Of a stretch of DNA of 64,000 nt, positions 441-38,006 are shown piece by piece. Position numbers and translations under genes: made by a program. Under the pieces are notes generated by a model. That model was not told where the DNA came from and made no database searches. It saw only the letters and a program-made list of their open reading frames with translations. How positions within the stretch are numbered: the first letter of the stretch is position 1; each line of letters begins with the position of its first letter. The DNA lies in the NCBI GenBank assembly GCA_965204745.1, contig OZ242010.1:4192001-4256000 (forward strand), given 5' to 3'. Source of the DNA: Candidatus Latescibacterota bacterium (GTDB lineage: Bacteria; Latescibacterota; UBA2968).

Positions 441-1481
441 TCATCCAAAAAACACTTTGGCGATGTCGTAAAGCCCCATATCCACGGTACGCAATTTCGA
501 CACGGCCTCTTTCAAATCAATCGCGATGATGTTTTGACCGCGCAATGCGACCATCTTGCCAAAATTGCCCTCGCCTATCAGGTCGATGGCCGCAATCCCA
601 AATCGCGTGCTCAATACGCGATCATAAGCCGAGGGGCTGCCCCCGCGCTGGATATGGCCCAACACGGTTGCGCGGCTTTCATAGCTGGTTCGCCGCTCGA
701 TTTCATCGCTCAACAAATTGCCAATGCCGCCTAGACGCACATGCCCAAAAGCGTCTTTTTCGCCGGACTGCAACACCATGCTGTCGTCTTCGAGCTTCGC
801 GCCTTCGGCCACCACCACGATGCTAAATGTCTTGCCGCGCGCGTGGCGTTTGCGGATGGTATCGCACACGTCGTCCAGATCAAACGGCACTTCCGGGATC
901 AAGATCACGTCCGCGCCCCCTGCGATACCCGATTCCACGGCGATCCACCCGGCGTGGCGCCCCATAACTTCTACGACCATCACGCGGTTGTGCGATTCCG
1001 CGGTGGTGTGCAGGCGGTCTATGGCTTCCATCACGATATTGATGGCCGTGTCAAACCCAAAGGTCTGATCCGTGCCATCCAAATCATTGTCAATCGTCTT
1101 GGGCACGCCGACCACCTTGATGCCCTCTGCGCTGAGGCGATAGGCCACGCCGAGCGTATCGTCGCCCCCAATCGCGATCAGCGCGTCCAAGCCCATTTTC
1201 CTCATGCCATCTCGAATGAGCGCGCCGCCGTCTGCCCCGTCTTGATACGGATTGGTTCGCGACGATCCCAAAATCGTGCCCCCGCGCGGTAAAATCCCCG
1301 AGACAGTGTCCAAAGTGAGCGGCTGCGACCTCCCTTCGAACATCCCCTTCCAGCCTTCCAACACCCCGATCATTTCGTAATCGTAAGTTGCAATGCCCTT
1401 GCGAACGATGGCGCGGATCACCGCGTTCAACCCCGGGCAATCGCCGCCGCCGGTCAGGATACCAACGCATTTTATACCCAT
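441..1481 (-). CDS. pfkA: 6-phosphofructokinase
   Basis: Motifs GILTGGGDCPGLNAVIR, GGTILGSSR, PKTIDND, EVMGRHAG, LGHIQRGG; ATG at 1481 with a GGAGA RBS. Confidence 0.95.
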   Translation of the reverse strand: MGIKCVGILTGGGDCPGLNAVIRAIVRKGIATYDYEMIGVLEGWKGMFEGRSQPLTLDTVSGILPRGGTILGSSRTNPYQDGADGGALIRDGMRKMGLDALIAIGGDDTLGVAYRLSAEGIKVVGVPKTIDNDLDGTDQTFGFDTAINIVMEAIDRLHTTAESHNRVMVVEVMGRHAGWIAVESGIAGGADVILIPEVPFDLDDVCDTIRKRHARGKTFSIVVVAEGAKLEDDSMVLQSGEKDAFGHVRLGGIGNLLSDEIERRTSYESRATVLGHIQRGGSPSAYDRVLSTRFGIAAIDLIGEGNFGKMVALRGQNIIAIDLKEAVSKLRTVDMGLYDIAKVFFG

Positions 1482-1539
1482 GAAATCTCCTTTGCAAAAT
1501 CTCAAAATAAACGCTCTCGTGCGATTTTCAAAGGCTTCA

Positions 1540-1568
1540 AGTGTATAAAATTGTGGCATCCATGTCAA
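1540..1568 (-). promoter_or_regulatory. Sigma70-type promoter for pfkA-gap
   Basis: TTGACA-17 nt-TACACT on the minus strand. Confidence 0.65.
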
Positions 1569-1782
1569 GCCTGCCGTGAGGGAATCGGTGAATCGAGATA
1601 CGACTGCGATAGCAGTTCATCGACGAATCAGCGAATCGGCAGAACCGGGGCCAACTGACCGTTTTTCAAGCCAAGTCACCACAGGCATCGCCCTACATTT
1701 CTATCCTCGTCTCTTACCGCTTACCTCTCGCGTCTGCCCTCTTGTTGGGCGGTCGGACGAACGGGTGGGGACTGACCTCTGC

Positions 1783-1890
1783 TTCCATCTTCGGGCACGC
1801 ACACGGCGGGGCTGGGGAGCGGCGGGGATCGCACGGGTGGCTGGGCGGAGCGGATGGGCACGCACCCGGCAGGGCGCGGTGGCGGGGTTG
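1783..1890. repeat. GC-rich dispersed composite repeat (GCACGG..GGGGATCGCAC..GGGCGG); relatives at ~7075-7275, ~12965-13100 and ~13880-14020
   Basis: Shared degenerate motifs in four intergenic regions. Confidence 0.55.
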
Positions 1891-1919
1891 TCTCCCCTCT
1901 CCCCTCTTGTATCTTGGAA

Positions 1920-2100
1920 GTAAGGGTTAATTAGGAGTTGCGCCCTCGTATCGAGATAAGCCATCTTGATGCCCGGCTCGGGGAAGGCCGGCCCCTCTTG
2001 AAGGCGATGACCTTGTAGGTAAGATAGGCCCCCCGACCGCCGGGTCTATGCCGAAGAGTATCTAAGCCCCTTGAGGCTGCATATACAAGACCGGTAGACT
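1920..2100 (+). ncRNA. IS110 bridge RNA (target-binding loop 1979-2035, donor-binding loop 2044-2099); ends approximate
   Basis: Two stem/internal-loop/hairpin modules. Their loop strands match the reconstructed target (CCCCTCT at 1992-1998; AGGTAAG at 2017-2023) and donor (AGAGTATCT at 2055-2063; ATACAAG at 2083-2089). Confidence 0.88.
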
Positions 2101-2174
2101 TGGCGTCAATGGTCGGGACGCGACCCCGAGCGCGCACCAGATCCCTTACAACCCCCTCATCACAGGAGGCCCCC

Positions 2175-3182
2175 ATGTCGAAATCTCACCCCGCTTTTGC
2201 CGGCATTGATGTCAGTGCCCGCACGTTGTCCGTTGCCCTGTCCAGACCCGGACAAGCTGTCATGCAAGCGACCTTTGCCAATGATCCCCAAGCGCATAAG
2301 CGGTTGCTGAAGTGGCTCACGAAGGGCGGGCACATGGTCTCTGTGTGCCTCGAAGCGACCGGGCTTTACAGTTTGGGGGTGGCCTTGGCCTTGCATCGGC
2401 ATCGCCACACAAAGGTCATGGTCGTCAATCCCAAAGCGATGAGCAAGTACGCCCAAGCCTGCATGCAACGGGCGAAGACGGATGCGAAGGATGCGTTGTT
2501 GATCCTCGACTATGCCGAGCGCATGCCTTTTGTGCCTTGGCAAGCGCCGAGCGAGCAACGGCTTCAACTGCAAGCCCTCACCAGACGCATTGACCAACTC
2601 AAGCAGGAGATCATCCGCGAACAGAGCCGCAACCACGCGCAGAGCTACCACATCCGCAGCACACGTCTCATCGCACGCGATATTCAGGTGAATATTCGAC
2701 ACTTCAAACGCCGGATTGCATACTTGGAAAGCCAAGCCCTCGATCTCGTTTTGCACGATGAGCCCCTCAAGCGTGCCTACCAACGCCTCTGCTCGACGCC
2801 TGGCATCGCGCAAACGAGTGCCTTGCGGCTCTTGGCCGAGTTGACCCTTTTGCCAGAGGAGATGCAACCGCCCCAGTGGGTCGCACATGCAGGCCTGGAT
2901 CCCAAACCCAAACAATCCGGAACCGCCAATCCACAAAGACGCATCTCGAAAACCGGGAATAAGTACCTCCGCCATGCCCTCTATATGCCTGCCTGGGTGG
3001 CCATCAGACACGAAGGCCATGTCAAAGCCTTCTATGACCAACTCATCGCCCGCGGCAAGAAACCTTTGCAGGCTATCGTTGCGGTGATGCGAAAGTTGCT
3101 CCATTCGATCTGGGGCATGTTGCGCCATGACCAAGATTTTGAGGGCGAAAAATTCTATCGAATCACCCCGAAAACCCCTTGA
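2175..3182 (+). CDS. IS110 family DEDD transposase/bridge recombinase
   Basis: Motifs GIDVS, CLEATG, KTDAKDA, PGI, AGLDP..QSG, GNKYLR..LY, A.VAVMRKL; AGGAGG RBS before the ATG at 2175. Confidence 0.95.
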   Translation: MSKSHPAFAGIDVSARTLSVALSRPGQAVMQATFANDPQAHKRLLKWLTKGGHMVSVCLEATGLYSLGVALALHRHRHTKVMVVNPKAMSKYAQACMQRAKTDAKDALLILDYAERMPFVPWQAPSEQRLQLQALTRRIDQLKQEIIREQSRNHAQSYHIRSTRLIARDIQVNIRHFKRRIAYLESQALDLVLHDEPLKRAYQRLCSTPGIAQTSALRLLAELTLLPEEMQPPQWVAHAGLDPKPKQSGTANPQRRISKTGNKYLRHALYMPAWVAIRHEGHVKAFYDQLIARGKKPLQAIVAVMRKLLHSIWGMLRHDQDFEGEKFYRITPKTP

Positions 3183-3242
3183 CCTTTTAAGAGAGTATCT
3201 TACCTCTTACCGAAAGGCGGGGCGGAGAGGCGAGGAACTGAA

Positions 3243-5528
3243 TCATATTCCAAATCCCCCCCTGCGGTGCTCGATTTTTATCTGCGGAATGTCTTTGATA
3301 TTGAGCTTAAAAAAGAAGCCCTTGTTGAAGCCCGTGGGGTACCACGAAAATCGGGCTTCCCAGCAGTGGAGGTCGCGGTACAGGGAGAGGCTTTGCGCCG
3401 AGAGGTTGGCATCGGGCAAAATCTCCACATTGACCGCATAGTCTATCCGCAACATTTGAAGGGGATTGACGCCCAAATCCGCTTTGACCCACGAGGTTTT
3501 GCTCGATGTTGTGCCGAATCGCCGCATGGCAATGTAGTGCGAGAGGTTGAATCGCCACGGCCCGGTGCCGGAAAAATCGCTGTACAAATCGCGTTCAAAG
3601 CCAAAATCCGCATCCGAGTAATCGCGGGAGGTCGAAGAATGAGACGGTTGCGTGCGCGGATCAGCGTGACCGCCGGCAAAGCGAAAATTGGAGGTGACGG
3701 TGAGGTTTTGCAAGCGCGGGTGCAAGAGGGACCTGGCGCCCGCATCGTCGTAGAGCCTGTGCGTCATGGCAATGCGAACATCCACGCGGGAGTCCGGTTT
3801 GAGGGATGCGCGGGTGCGGAGGGAACGCCATTTTTGCGCGGGCGCGTCAAAATCGTAGCCGGTAGCTATGTTGAGCGTGGCCAGGGTAAAGCGATGAAAG
3901 TCGTCGCCGCGTTGGGTTTTGAGTTCGAGCGTATTGCCGATAGACAAGTTGACGCTGCGCCTGGCGTCATGCCACTTGCGATTGCCCCCAAAGCCAAACG
4001 CGCCGCCAAAGATGCTACCGGTCTGGCTGTAATTGAAATTGATCTGGGGGTGTAACCGATGCCGAATGCCGCGCAAGCGTCCGAGGCGCGGTTGGAAAAT
4101 GCCGTACAATGTCGTACCCGTTGCGATAGCCGCGCTGTAAGACGTGCGCCGCGTGGTCGAATCCGCGTCGCTGCGTATCAATTCCTCGCTGAGATTCAAA
4201 CTCGGCGTGAGGTCGAGCCAGCCCATGGGCCGGTGCTGGCTGTTGACCGTGAGGAGGTTTTGCAGGGAAACGCGCGCGGTATTGGACGTCGGATCTGGGT
4301 TGCGCGTGAAGTTGTTGCCCAGGTTGCTCGAAAATCCGTAGTAAAAAGCGCGATACCACGGGCCTGTGGCAGAGTCCTCGCCGCCAAAGATGCGGCGTCT
4401 GGGTTGTCGAAAACCGATGCGGGGAAAGCCCTGAAAGCTGTTGGTCTTTTTGTTCAAATCTCGGTAGTAAGTCAGGCTACCGTCGATGCTGCGCCCGGAT
4501 TCGGGCCAGCGTTTGTCAAACGACAAACTGGAGCGCAGTTGCTGGTTGAGATAGCGATACAAATTGTCGCTGTTGCGGCGGTCAAAGCTGGTGCTGGTGG
4601 AAAATTGCCCGCGCCCTCGGATGTTGGTCGTGGCATTGAGGCGGTGCTGGTGTTGCAGGTTGACGCGCCAGTCGTGGGCCGTGCCGGTCGTTGAGGTGTT
4701 GCGGTCGTAGCCGAGATCCACCGCGCCGCTGAACCTGTTTCGCACTGCGTACGCGCCCCGGGATTCGAGCAAGAAGCCTCCGCGCTCTCGAAACGTGCCC
4801 TTCACAGTGGCATCCCAATAGTCACTCGACGCGAAATAGTACCCGAGATTGCGGACGAAAATCCCATCCCGGCTGTTGTTGCCCACCCCCGGCGTGAGCA
4901 AGCCGGATTGCCGCCCTTGCTTGACCGGAAAAACGAAAAAGGGCACCCAGAAGACCGGGACAGGCCCAATGCGGAAGGTGACGGAGCGACCGATGGCTTT
5001 GTCATTTTGCAAAATGCGTACATTCTTGCACGAGAAGTCGTAGTGGACGTGATCGCGGTCGCAGGTGCTCAATGAGAGGTCATACGCATTGAGGGCGTCT
5101 TGGCCTTCGAGCGCGATTTGGGCGCCGCGGTAGTATTTTCGCTGGTGGGATGCGCGCCCGGTTCGCACGCGCCCGCGTTCCGTGTCGAGGTTGTAGCGCA
5201 TGTACGCGCCTGAGATGCGTTCCGCGCCGCGAGTGAATTGGGGCAGGCCCAGGGTTTTTGCCCCTGTGGAATCGGGCAGGGCGCGCGCCGTGACCGTGCG
5301 GGTATTTTGATCGTAGGTGATGTGCCCGGCTTTGAGCGCGATATTGCGGTAGCGCAAGGTGGCATTGCCCACGAGTTCCACCTGCTCGTCCCGCACGCGA
5401 TAGACGACCTCATCCGCGTCAAACGCGATGGAATCCCCCGGCGCGTTTTCCGGCACTTGCCCCCATCCCTGCGTGGCGCATAAGACCCATAGCGCGACGA
5501 GGCATAATTTTTTTTTTCCCATCGTCAT
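3243..5528 (-). CDS. lptD: LPS-assembly protein LptD-like outer-membrane beta-barrel
   Basis: Signal peptide, OstA-like N-terminus, STCD and RQSGLLTP motifs, RDLHCWE C-terminal motif. Confidence 0.8.
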   Translation of the reverse strand: MTMGKKKLCLVALWVLCATQGWGQVPENAPGDSIAFDADEVVYRVRDEQVELVGNATLRYRNIALKAGHITYDQNTRTVTARALPDSTGAKTLGLPQFTRGAERISGAYMRYNLDTERGRVRTGRASHQRKYYRGAQIALEGQDALNAYDLSLSTCDRDHVHYDFSCKNVRILQNDKAIGRSVTFRIGPVPVFWVPFFVFPVKQGRQSGLLTPGVGNNSRDGIFVRNLGYYFASSDYWDATVKGTFRERGGFLLESRGAYAVRNRFSGAVDLGYDRNTSTTGTAHDWRVNLQHQHRLNATTNIRGRGQFSTSTSFDRRNSDNLYRYLNQQLRSSLSFDKRWPESGRSIDGSLTYYRDLNKKTNSFQGFPRIGFRQPRRRIFGGEDSATGPWYRAFYYGFSSNLGNNFTRNPDPTSNTARVSLQNLLTVNSQHRPMGWLDLTPSLNLSEELIRSDADSTTRRTSYSAAIATGTTLYGIFQPRLGRLRGIRHRLHPQINFNYSQTGSIFGGAFGFGGNRKWHDARRSVNLSIGNTLELKTQRGDDFHRFTLATLNIATGYDFDAPAQKWRSLRTRASLKPDSRVDVRIAMTHRLYDDAGARSLLHPRLQNLTVTSNFRFAGGHADPRTQPSHSSTSRDYSDADFGFERDLYSDFSGTGPWRFNLSHYIAMRRFGTTSSKTSWVKADLGVNPLQMLRIDYAVNVEILPDANLSAQSLSLYRDLHCWEARFSWYPTGFNKGFFFKLNIKDIPQIKIEHRRGGFGI

Positions 5529-7033: not shown

Positions 7034-7417
7034 CTTCTTTCGCCACCTCCTTCGGTGAGACGTAAGACGGGAGAAGTGAGAGGTGAGACAACCCCGCCAC
7101 CGCCCAAGGGCGATCCCCACCGCTCACCCTATCCGCCCGTGCGTGCCTCGCCTCGCCACCCATCCGCCCGTGTGATTCCCGCCGCTACCCCTGTCCTCCC
7201 GTGCGTGCCCTTCTTCTTCACTCCGCCCAAGTGCGATCCCCACCGCTCCACCCAGCCACCCGTGCGTGCCTGTCCGAAGCAGGGACTCGTTGAAGTGTCC
7301 CAGTTTCAAATTGGTATAAGTAATCCAGCGACTGAAACGGATCGCTTAGCCCATCGCTTCTTTTAACTTGTCCGTCCGCTGTAAATAGCTTATTTATAGT
7401 TTATATAGGAGGACAGC

Positions 7418-10325: not shown

Positions 10326-10476
10326 GGCTTGCCTCTTGCCTCTTGCCTCTCACCTCTCACCTTTTTAGGCGATAGCCCGTTCAAAGGTGATCAGTGAGTG
10401 TAGGTCTTCTCCCGTCTTGCCTCTCACCTCTCACCTTTTTTTTAACTCCCATTACTCGCTCCTTTGAGACTCCATA

Positions 10477-12921: not shown

Positions 12922-13104
12922 AAAGCGAAAACCAACCACCGCTGACCACGGCTGAATCCGGGTATAGGAACGCACACGGCAGGGCAGGGGAACGGAGGGT
13001 AGCGGCGGGGATCGCACTTGGGCGGTGGCGGGGCGGTCTCACCTCTCCCGTCTTCCCTCTCACCGAAGGGAGTTGGGCGGGGAGCGGAGGAGATCGGAGA
13101 TACC

Positions 13105-14983: not shown

Positions 14984-15881
14984 TTCAGCGAACAAAACTC
15001 TGGTCGCATTTCAAGGCGAGTACGGCGCGTTTAGCGAAATGGCGGCGCGTTCCTATTTTGGCGAGGATGTGCAGGTTGCGCCACAGCGCGATTTTGCGTC
15101 TCTATTTGCAGGGGTCGAACGCGGGGATTGCACGCACGGGATGGTGCCCATTGAAAATTCGTTGATGGGTAGCATTCACGAAAATTACGACCATCTGTCC
15201 GCGCACAATTTGCAGATTGTGGGCGAATTGAAATTGCGAATCGTTCACAACTTGATCGTGAATCCCGGGGTCGCGTTGGCGGATGTGCGCTCTGTTTATT
15301 CCCAAGCCCCTGCCCTGGCGCAATGTGCCGAGTTTCTCGCGTCGTTGCCGCGGGTCAAAGCGGTGATGGCGTCCGATACCGCGGGCGCGGTGAAGGCATT
15401 GAAGGCGTCGGGCGCGCGCGATGCCGCCGCGATTGCGAGTGCCCAAGCAGCCGTGGATTACGATCTGGAAATTCTACGTGCGGGCATCGAGGACGACCAT
15501 CAAAATTACACGCGGTTTTTGGTGGTGACAGCACGGGCGTTCGCGCCCGAAAAGCCGGCCATCACAGGCCCTGCAAAAACGTCGATTGTGTTTGCGATGA
15601 AAAACGTGCCGGGCGCGTTGTTCAAAAGTTTGAGCGTGTTTGCCTTGCGCGATCTCAATTTGCTCAAAATCGAATCCCGCCCCCTCGCGGGCAAGCCCTG
15701 GGAATACGCTTTTTCGCTGGATATCGAAGGCCACCTCGGACAAGAACCCTGCGCCCGCGCCATCGATCACCTGCGGGAAATCGCAACATTCGTCAAGGTG
15801 CTCGGCTCGTATCGACAAGGCGATGCGGTCGAAGGGGAAATCGTAAGACGCGAGATGAAAGGCGTAAGACGTGAGACGTAA
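14976..15881 (+). CDS. pheA: Prephenate dehydratase with ACT domain
   Basis: Motifs VAFQGE.GAFSE, PIENS, NYTRF, LLKIESRP, VLGSY. Confidence 0.93.
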   Translation: MDNSANKTLVAFQGEYGAFSEMAARSYFGEDVQVAPQRDFASLFAGVERGDCTHGMVPIENSLMGSIHENYDHLSAHNLQIVGELKLRIVHNLIVNPGVALADVRSVYSQAPALAQCAEFLASLPRVKAVMASDTAGAVKALKASGARDAAAIASAQAAVDYDLEILRAGIEDDHQNYTRFLVVTARAFAPEKPAITGPAKTSIVFAMKNVPGALFKSLSVFALRDLNLLKIESRPLAGKPWEYAFSLDIEGHLGQEPCARAIDHLREIATFVKVLGSYRQGDAVEGEIVRREMKGVRRET

Positions 15882-16042
15882 GACGTGAGACGGGAGACGT
15901 GAGACGTGAGAAGCCACCCAACCCCCTTCGCCTTTCATCCGCTTTCATCCGTGTTGCGTTTCGCTTTTCGCCTTTCACCTCTTGCCTCTCACCTCTCACC
16001 TTTTTGAGCATCGCCCCTACGAAGGGGGTTAGGTGGGGCGGA

Positions 16043-36404: not shown

Positions 36405-36655
36405 GGTGCGTTGAATGGATTGTACCACGATGGGATTCTCGGAGTGATTAAGACGGGAGGGGGTTAGCCACAAAAGGCACGAGCGGGGTACAACTGGCGA
36501 TAGCCAGTTCAAAGGCACAAAAGGCGAGCAGGATGTGTAGGGGCGATGCCCCTGTGCTCGCCCTAAGATACAAGGGGAATGGCGAGAGGTGAGAGGCGAG
36601 AGGTGAGGCAACCCCGCCCATCCGCTCCCTTCAGGTAAGATACTCTCTTAAAAGG

Positions 36656-37663
36656 TCAAGGGGTTTTCGGGGTGATTCGATAGAATTTTTCGCCCTCAAA
36701 ATCTTGGTCATGGCGCAACATGCCCCAGATCGAATGGAGCAACTTTCGCATCACCGCAACGATAGCCTGCAAAGGTTTCTTGCCGCGGGCGATGAGTTGG
36801 TCATAGAAGGCTTTGACATGGCCTTCGTGTCTGATGGCCACCCAGGCAGGCATATAGAGGGCATGGCGGAGGTACTTATTCCCGGTTTTCGAGATGCGTC
36901 TTTGTGGATTGGCGGTTCCGGATTGTTTGGGTTTGGGATCCAGGCCTGCATGTGCGACCCACTGGGGCGGTTGCATCTCCTCTGGCAAAAGGGTCAACTC
37001 GGCCAAGAGCCGCAAGGCACTCGTTTGCGCGATGCCAGGCGTCGAGCAGAGGCGTTGGTAGGCACGCTTGAGGGGCTCATCGTGCAAAACGAGATCGAGG
37101 GCTTGGCTTTCCAAGTATGCAATCCGGCGTTTGAAGTGTCGAATATTCACCTGAATATCGCGTGCGATGAGACGTGTGCTGCGGATGTGGTAGCTCTGCG
37201 CGTGGTTGCGGCTCTGTTCGCGGATGATCTCCTGCTTGAGTTGGTCAATGCGTCTGGTGAGGGCTTGCAGTTGAAGCCGTTGCTCGCTCGGCGCTTGCCA
37301 AGGCACAAAAGGCATGCGCTCGGCATAGTCGAGGATCAACAACGCATCCTTCGCATCCGTCTTCGCCCGTTGCATGCAGGCTTGGGCGTACTTGCTCATC
37401 GCTTTGGGATTGACGACCATGACCTTTGTGTGGCGATGCCGATGCAAGGCCAAGGCCACCCCCAAACTGTAAAGCCCGGTCGCTTCGAGGCACACAGAGA
37501 CCATGTGCCCGCCCTTCGTGAGCCACTTCAGCAACCGCTTATGCGCTTGGGGATCATTGGCAAAGGTCGCTTGCATGACAGCTTGTCCGGGTCTGGACAG
37601 GGCAACGGACAACGTGCGGGCACTGACATCAATGCCGGCAAAAGCGGGGTGAGATTTCGACAT
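36656..37663 (-). CDS. IS110 family transposase/bridge recombinase
   Basis: Protein identical to that of 2175-3182. Confidence 0.95.
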   Translation of the reverse strand: MSKSHPAFAGIDVSARTLSVALSRPGQAVMQATFANDPQAHKRLLKWLTKGGHMVSVCLEATGLYSLGVALALHRHRHTKVMVVNPKAMSKYAQACMQRAKTDAKDALLILDYAERMPFVPWQAPSEQRLQLQALTRRIDQLKQEIIREQSRNHAQSYHIRSTRLIARDIQVNIRHFKRRIAYLESQALDLVLHDEPLKRAYQRLCSTPGIAQTSALRLLAELTLLPEEMQPPQWVAHAGLDPKPKQSGTANPQRRISKTGNKYLRHALYMPAWVAIRHEGHVKAFYDQLIARGKKPLQAIVAVMRKLLHSIWGMLRHDQDFEGEKFYRITPKTP

Positions 37664-37737
37664 GGGGGCCTCCTGTGATGAGGGGGTTGTAAGGGATCTG
37701 GTGCGCGCTCGGGGTCGCGTCCCGACCATTGACGCCA

Positions 37738-37918
37738 AGTCTACCGGTCTTGTATATGCAGCCTCAAGGGGCTTAGATACTCTTCGGCATAGACCCGGCG
37801 GTCGGGGGGCCTATCTTACCTACAAGGTCATCGCCTTCAAGAGGGGCCGGCCTTCCCCGAGCCGGGCATCAAGATGGCTTATCTCGATACGAGGGCGCAA
37901 CTCCTAATTAACCCTTAC
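37738..37918 (-). ncRNA. IS110 bridge RNA, copy 2
   Basis: Reverse complement of 1920-2100. Confidence 0.85.
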
Positions 37919-38006
37919 TTCCAAGATACAAGAGGGGAGACGTAAGATGCAATTTTAGCCACAAGCCAGGGACAGGGTCTCTGGCTCTTTTTGTGTCATT
38001 TCCGCT

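Follow-up and report, generated by a model that had tools for sequence, protein, structure and literature searches.

Insertion sequences (IS) of the IS110 family often target repetitive elements such as repetitive extragenic palindromes (REPs; PMC11208160). For the REP-targeting members tabulated in PMC1525189, all copies (4/4 to 7/7) lie in REPs, and IS1111-type elements are described as targeting attC sites, REPs and transposon ends (PMC11187229). Here we analyse a 64,000-nt stretch of a Candidatus Latescibacterota genome (assembly GCA_965204745.1, contig OZ242010.1, positions 4,192,001 to 4,256,000 of the forward strand; hereafter the window), which carries two copies of an IS110-family element seated in tandem arrays of a 7-nt unit. 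From its anatomy, guide–target complementarity and covariation, an empty allele and its genomic distribution, we conclude that this is very probably an active bridge-RNA element with a guide that matches two adjacent heptamer units, a site found almost only inside TCTNNCC arrays.

Among solved structures the recombinase best matches ISCro4 (PDB code 9t56, E 7.6e-40 over residues 7-326), and E. coli IS621 (PDB code 8wt6, E 5.8e-36 over residues 8-326) has the same two domains. With IS621 the element further shares a long non-coding left end holding two internal-loop stem-loops (the loop arrangement is as described in PMC11208160; the fold here is predicted), a CT core, the lack of target duplication and of terminal inverted repeats, and a dispersed intergenic repeat as target. 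It departs from IS621 in its target, which PMC11208160 gives as a site in REP palindromes and which here is two adjacent units of a 7-nt tandem array, and in its high copy number (52), with natural guide variants coexisting in one genome. ISPpu9, ISPpu10, ISPa11 and ISRm19 are similar in that 7/7, 7/7, 6/6 and 4/4 copies occupy one position of a host intergenic repeat family (PMC1525189), but those repeats are palindromic REPs rather than tandem heptamers, and ISPa11 is of IS1111 type, described as having its guide RNA downstream of the gene (PMC11187229). The IS1111-attC group and IS4321/IS5075 are likewise described as inserting sequence-specifically into a recurring element (attC sites and Tn21-family inverted repeats, respectively), yet these targets are part of other mobile elements, and the elements carry their guide RNA at the 3' end and have subterminal inverted repeats. 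A tandem-repeat, microsatellite or heptamer target for IS110 or IS1111 elements was found neither by full-text search nor in the accessible portions of PMC11208160, PMC1525189, PMC11187229 and two IS110 preprints; the supplementary target lists of PMC11208160, outside this scope, could hide one. Within that literature, the suggestion of an undescribed target class made in an initial annotation of the window holds. The mechanism is a known one (IS110 bridge RNA), and the element appears to follow a REP-style strategy with a new kind of repeat.

The element and its insertion sites

The genome containing the window (G000) is a single contig of 5.48 Mb; G018 and G016 denote sister genomes. The copies in the window are organized as follows, the right core copy being counted with the element by convention.

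1891..1904 (+): left half of the target of copy 1, two TCTCCCC units
1905..1908 (+): TCTT fitting both junctions of copy 1; recombination core CT at 1906-1907, second core copy at 3199-3200
1908..3200 (+): IS110-family element, copy 1, 1293 bp
1908..2174 (+): non-coding left end, 267 nt, beginning TGTATCTTGG and predicted to encode the bridge RNA
2175..3182 (+): recombinase gene, 335 aa, DEDD_Tnp_IS110 and Transposase_20 domains
3179..3200 (+): right end, which contains TTGACC at 3179-3184 and extends 18 nt beyond the stop codon
3201..3211 (+): right half of the target, TACC finishing one TCTTACC unit, then another TCTTACC
36634..36637 (-): right target of copy 2, TACC, where the array stops
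36638..37930 (-): IS copy 2, matching copy 1 at 1293/1293 bases
37931..37947 (-): left target of copy 2, TCTTACG, TCTCCCC, then TCT

The element termini (TGTATCTTGG.. and ..GAGAGTATCT) show no terminal inverted repeats and no target-site duplication, and the non-coding end sits upstream of the gene, as in the IS110 type, not downstream, as in the IS1111 type (267 nt on the left versus 18 nt on the right). Excision of 1908-3200 gives two TCTCCCC units followed by two TCTTACC units, and excision of copy 2 gives TCTTACG, TCTCCCC, TCTTACC, both as the initial annotation had stated. The gene product matches PF01548 (N-terminal DEDD RuvC-like domain; E 1.2e-24, 87.3 bits versus a cut-off of 29, residues 9-154) and PF02371 (C-terminal Tnp; E 4.8e-20, 72.2 bits versus a cut-off of 21.3). 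Within its homology to the solved bridge recombinases, the stretch RISKTGNKYLR, which includes a candidate for the conserved serine of the C-terminal domain, pairs in the alignment with RMSKAGHASLR of ISCro4.

The empty site that these excisions predict was found in a public metagenome. Comparing contigs of four public runs with window 1400-3700, which those of X12, X14 and X16 cover in part, we found a contig of run X1 (1736 nt, depth 12.2) that follows 1706-1904 with 0 differences, passes through the left half of the target and joins 1904 directly to 3198, continuing over 3198-3700; it skips 1293 nt, and 4 letters at its junction fit both sides. The insertion is therefore exact and adds no duplication. 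Run X12 has a contig (1400-1923) that spans the left junction with the element in place, which makes the locus polymorphic for its presence; the number of array units at this one locus is unchanged in run X1. Run X1 is a sponge metagenome in which the flanks occur at high identity and the site is empty, and the stretch occurs in runs from 8 studies labelled sponge or marine metagenome, or with coded organisms; none of these is an RNA run.

BLAST of the element against G000 returned 79 segments, of which the 52 full-length copies (>1250 nt) were analysed and 27 partial ones left out of the flank analysis; the full-length copies fall in sets ~100%, 96% and 88% identical to the query. For each copy we removed the element at the shared TCT, then counted strict TCTYNCB units in register. 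The reconstituted site lies within at least two consecutive strict units in 51/52 copies and within at least three in 48/52 (binomial P for at least 48/52 at p=0.0047 is 5e-107, assuming independent insertions; copies of the 88% set are perhaps non-independent, because its five copies share similar flanks). All copies share one orientation and one position relative to the heptamer units: in the main class (45 copies) the left flank ends in ..CCCC-TCT in 40/45 and the right flank starts with TACC or TGCC in 42/45. At the right junction the base after TCT is C, not T, in 4/52 copies, such that only (T)CT is common to both junctions in 52/52. The proposal of the initial annotation that insertions of this element lie in heptamer arrays is thus borne out genome-wide, as is the intergenic location that it had assigned to them: on a crude map of open reading frames (ORFs), only 3/52 copies have both flanks inside an ORF, although ORFs make up 85% of the genome.

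The gene is full length (335 aa) in 51/52 G000 copies, the exception (262 aa) lying at G000:C1:3890242-3891555, and 34/52 left ends are identical; judged from these sequences, the element has apparently been active recently. One of the 7 copies in G016 is split (L035, 189 aa), the remainder encoding 335 aa. Megablast of the plasmid collection with the element gave no match. Three further arrangements were seen in G000. Two IS copies, one of the 100% and one of the 96% set, stand head to tail at G000:C1:1121582-1124187 (-) with TACC alone between them, from which it follows that one inserted into a single unit at the other's edge. At G000:C1:2459526 (+), a tiny remnant consists of a duplicated CTTGTAT followed by approximately the first 15 nt of the left end fused to TCTTGTG, apparently an IS copy that has lost its interior. 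Flanks are similar among the five 88%-subfamily copies (G000:C1:217971, 290002, 1307056, 2197878 and 3989006), G-rich on the left and TCTTACTTGGGGATAGGGCTTGCGGT on the right; these copies either sit in a conserved repeat or were copied along with it.

Predicted guides and their targets

The left ends of the 52 copies collapse to 10 distinct sequences. Folded from six left ends of three genomes, the aligned sequences give two predicted stem-loops, each with an internal loop, in which the following putative guides can be assigned.

1986..2030 (+): target-binding stem-loop (loop 1), closing stem GGCC/GGCC, apical stem AAGG/CCTT
1992-1999 (+): left target guide CCCCTCTT, in loop 1 (5' side), same sense as left target and core
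2018-2024 (+): right target guide GGTAAGA, 3' side of loop 1, reverse complement of TCTTACC
2032..2117 (+): donor-binding stem-loop, same logic as loop 1 applied to the element's own ends
2055-2063 (+): left donor guide AGAGTATCT, sense of the element's right end
2083-2090 (+): right donor guide ATACAAGA, reverse complement of TCTTGTAT (core plus left-end start)

By this folding model and its complementarities, the left end is predicted to encode a canonical bridge RNA, the loops of which would pair with both strands of target and donor. The complementarity of the target loop, taken with the 51/52 flanks, agrees with the earlier description of the 14-nt target as two adjacent heptamer units. 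In a circle junction, TTGACC of the right end would stand 18 nt upstream of TATCTT of the left end, a possible junction promoter.

Guide matches were scored on 5 nt to the left and 4 nt to the right of the core, each copy against its own flanks, with these results in G000.

Main guide class (45 copies): 9/9 in 20, 8 in 18, 7 in 4 and 6 in 3; with G-U type wobble, 38/45 fully paired
88% set, guides CGCCT and TACT (4 copies): at CGCCT-CT-TACT or one step away, 8-9/9 in 4/4
Copy 1297021, three guide changes giving TCCCT and CACC (1 copy): 9/9 at TCCCT-CT-CACC

The same relation extends to relatives of the element. A one-genome-per-species scan found the family in only two other chromosomes, plus one distant match; among 41 genomes searched, it occurs in 4: G000, G016, G018 and, at 54% identity, G036. 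By two host proteins, the nearest kin of G000 are G018 (88/88% identity) and G016 (88/86%), then G001. In G018, 16/18 copies lie in at least two strict units; CTCGCCTCT and GGGAGA are the guides, and in the flanks TCTCGCC or TCTCACC is followed by TCT and CCCG, giving the target TCTCGCC-TCTCCC(G), a different unit pair. None of the copies in G016 (0/7) lies in an array: the right target guide is AGAAAAGA and the target ..CT-TTTCT (right flank TTTCT), with a C-rich left flank. The G036 relative (L069-L071) comes from another family of the same order; it keeps the left-end start (TTGTATCTTG) and lies at non-heptamer sites; the G036 genome has no 4-unit heptamer arrays. In a cross matrix, every guide class scores highest on, or tied with, its own targets or those of a class in the same genome, the main class reaching 8.2 on its own targets versus 4.8 and 5.0 on those of the sister genomes. 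The covariation between guide variants and flanking units anticipated by the initial annotation is thus present both within G000 and in the sister genomes.

A transposase tree was built from 27 distinct proteins after removal of two truncated rows. Copies from the same genome group together in it, each such clade with 100/100 support, which places the origin of the G000 guide variants inside the lineage of G000. Support for joining G000 to G018 is low (88/57), so heptamer targeting may have arisen either once or repeatedly.

Nature and supply of the heptamer arrays

The window itself holds seven empty arrays: the four named in the initial annotation and three more that were absent from its list.

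10334..10361 (+): 4 units
10408..10435 (+): 4 units
15980..16000 (+): 3 units
36581..36601 (-): 3 units, beside copy 2
13037..13064 (+): 4 units, newly listed
15863..15911 (-): 7 units, inverted relative to 15980-16000, newly listed
7054..7088 (-): 5 units, newly listed

Across G000 there are 641 arrays of at least 3 units, amounting to 0.47% of the genome, with up to 48 units running head to tail in strict register. The heptamer family described at the outset is real, but its formula, TCTYMCC, was too narrow, the commonest unit of the genome being TCTTGCC (698 units). Counts of a 4-unit pattern reach 1742 in G000 and 1472 in G018 and do not exceed 79 in any of the 19 remaining genomes of the genus, many of which are single-contig; G016 has 7. 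Genomes without the element carry arrays at a low level, including 13/13 genomes of genus g6. The arrays are largely intergenic (173/641 midpoints inside ORFs on the crude map). A preference for the sense strand just upstream of genes was rejected on the same map, 179 arrays being co-oriented with the downstream ORF versus 280 not.

Rather than standing alone as microsatellites, the arrays have recurrent neighbours, namely G-rich linkers, arrays built from a second heptamer (ACTGACN) and hairpin modules; a right-hand module, GAAGGGGGTTGGGCGG, is present in 52-83 of the 641 array flanks, and TTGGGCGG recurs as a left-hand module. The modules seen in the intergenic mosaics of G000 comprise a hairpin repeat, CTACACATATCGCTCACC, the TTTGAACTGGCTATCGCCAGTTGTACCCC hairpin, CTTTTGTGC repeats, TCTNNCC arrays, G-rich linkers and ACTGACN arrays. 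Inverted pairs of arrays are frequent (window 15842-15911 (-) / 15960-16000 (+); in G000, AAAAAGGTGAGAGG...GGCCACC modules). To judge from their sequence, such pairs could form long imperfect hairpins, and several end in a T run, terminator-like. At 2/2 orthologous intergenic loci checked in G018, G016 and G001 the array is absent, so arrays appear at new loci and not only by growth in place. Single arrays contain several perfect target sites 14 nt apart (in two places, for example, three in succession), and tandem amplification therefore multiplies target sites.

These results divide two terms of the initial annotation. That the arrays are slippage-generated is doubtful, as they are modules of mosaic intergenic repeats, absent at both orthologous loci, while amplification of sites in place by 14-nt steps stands. 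They may be self-renewing, as the spacing of perfect sites would suggest, but no length polymorphism was seen at the one locus compared.

The second heptamer family, ACTGAYN, has 1243 three-unit matches in G000 and 2 in G018. No second IS110 lineage aimed at it was found, all 57 PF01548 matches in G000 being members of the one element family described here; ACTGAYN has thus expanded without any IS110 aimed at it, so heptamer expansion belongs to these genomes and does not need this element. A REP-associated tyrosine (Y1) transposase (RAYT) as spreader of the mosaic repeats was also rejected: its domain, PF01797, gave 0 matches in G000 and G016, and is present in G018, G001 and G008.

The 10-mer that starts the left end of the IS, CTTGTATCTT, occurs 212 times in G000, 160 of them outside IS copies and mostly heading a hairpin repeat (YGGGCGAGCACGGGGGCATCGCC); examples lie at G000:C1:536073, 586195 and 778368, and in the window at ~36566-36580 (-). 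An excess of this 10-mer is confined to the three sister genomes that carry the IS (212, 242 and 294 versus at most 56 in 18 others). Part of it, TATCTTTG, fits the Bacteroidota -7 promoter box. A spread of CTTGTATCTT wherever the IS lineage occurs was rejected on the G036 genome, whose relative has the same left-end start (22 occurrences versus a control of 17).

The supply of sites differs between the genomes.

CCCCTCTTRCC (site of the G000 element), empty sites: G000 84, G018 17, G016 3, G001 2
TCRCCTCTCCC (site of the G018 element), empty sites: G000 164, G018 129, G016 16, G001 8
CYCCTTTTCTYG (G016-type site): G000 7, G018 10, G016 5, G001 5

Copy number follows own-type empty sites (84, 129 and 5 in G000, G018 and G016; IS matches 52, 19 and 9). 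In G000, 66/84 empty sites of its own type lie in arrays, and for the exact TACC form 16 empty sites are left versus 20 occupied. The notion that the guide is tuned to the host's dominant heptamer did not survive this count, G000 holding 164 sister-type sites versus 84 empty plus ~40 occupied sites of its own type.

Mechanism and alternative explanations

The proposed mechanism takes its circle, RNA expression and chemistry from IS621. By that analogy, the element would excise as a circle; its donor loop would recognize the junction of right end and left end (RE–LE; ..GAGTAT-CT-TGTAT..), its target loop would pair with both strands of a heptamer site, with the CT core as the point of strand exchange by the recombinase, an insertion that leaves no duplication. 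As arrays are many and lie between genes, 52 copies were reached with little gene disruption. Point changes in the two guide segments have probably moved sub-lineages to other unit pairs and, in a sister genome with few arrays, taken the element to a site outside the heptamers.

Several observations weigh against this account. The single-sequence fold is unremarkable (z = -1.51, with 11/200 shuffles folding equally well), compensatory changes affect only 3/56 predicted pairs, which is explained by the six left ends being close relatives, and a Rfam scan of 1700-3400 matched no family at E up to 1. The fold evidence being weak by itself, the case for a bridge RNA rests on complementarity and covariation, and these have exceptions of their own: 2-3 positions are unpaired in 7/45 main-class copies (for example, with right flank CCCG in two), copy 602770 matches at 6/9 and G018 copies mostly match at 7/9, or 8 allowing wobble. 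Scoring 5 plus 4 nt is itself a simplification, because the register of the left guide shifts by one base between G000 and G018. The RE–LE circle joint was not seen in the assembled contigs of the four public runs.

The mismatched main-class copies could also be taken to mean that the site is chosen by the protein or by DNA structure (slipped or triplex polypyrimidine repeats), RNA complementarity being incidental; all targets are polypyrimidine tandem repeats and could adopt unusual structures. We consider this highly improbable. Insertions keep to one exact position and orientation within a particular unit pair instead of scattering over the arrays; in five guide classes from three genomes, altered guides go with altered targets; the G016 relative, which carries 2-4 changes in its guides, is found outside repeats; and the family is described as experimentally RNA-guided (PMC11208160). 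Causation might instead run the other way, the IS or its recombinase making or spreading the arrays through 7-nt footprints or half-site recombination, so that arrays grow around elements. The very high array load is confined to the two genomes with a heptamer-programmed element, two units resembling the heptamer (TCTTGTA, TCTTGGA) open the left end, a second GTATCT 7 nt inside it makes a 7-nt footprint conceivable, and CTTGTATCTT recurs 160 times outside IS copies in G000, with an excess limited to the IS-bearing genomes. Against this stand the 641 arrays versus 52 elements, the low-level arrays of genomes without the element, the ACTGAYN expansion, G016 with 242 copies of CTTGTATCTT but hardly any arrays, the G036 relative with no motif excess, and the empty allele, which carries an intact array without the element. 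Only 4 TCTTGTA units lie between canonical units and 14/160 non-IS CTTGTATCTT copies follow at least two units, counts on which the footprint model of array growth was rejected. An origin of the arrays in the element is therefore improbable, if less so than a choice of site by protein or DNA structure.

More serious is the view that the target is a module of REP-like mosaic intergenic repeats (of the bacterial interspersed mosaic element, BIME, kind) rather than a microsatellite, and the element's habit the familiar REP-targeting one; we give it somewhat less than an even chance. The recurring modules that flank the arrays (GAAGGGGGTTGGGCGG on the right, TTGGGCGG on the left, ACTGACN arrays and hairpins) favour it, and the lack of an array at either orthologous locus of the three nearest genomes suggests that arrays were dispersed together with the mosaics. 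But what is recognized is a tandem pair of units and no palindrome, target sites repeated in register every 14 nt within single arrays denote tandem amplification, and G000 and G016 have no REP-associated Y1 transposase. This view re-describes the target; it is fair and compatible with a bridge-RNA element set to a heptamer-unit pair.

Discussion

A tentative extension of the bridge-RNA explanation, which we regard as rather unlikely, is that the arrays act as a self-multiplying landing pad: in-register duplication of a unit pair would make new perfect sites beside the old, copy number would follow supply, and single-base drift in the two guide segments would let sub-lineages hop between unit variants, an ongoing co-evolution of microsatellite and guide. 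If this were true, a deeper connection of the element with the repeat system of the host would be marked by the left end, which begins like the heptamers (TCTTGTA, TCTTGGA), and by its 10-mer, which also heads ~160 mosaic repeats of the host.

The element adds tandem short repeats to the natural targets of bridge RNAs, so far REP palindromes, attC sites and transposon ends. It also supplies a natural reprogramming series, at least five guide classes with matching targets in three close genomes, one of which moved to a non-repeat site where arrays are missing; the series is comparative material on guide drift, on the mismatches and wobble tolerated in nature and on how target supply limits copy number. 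With its 335-aa recombinase and 267-nt left end, the element is another compact orthologue and a candidate programmable recombinase.

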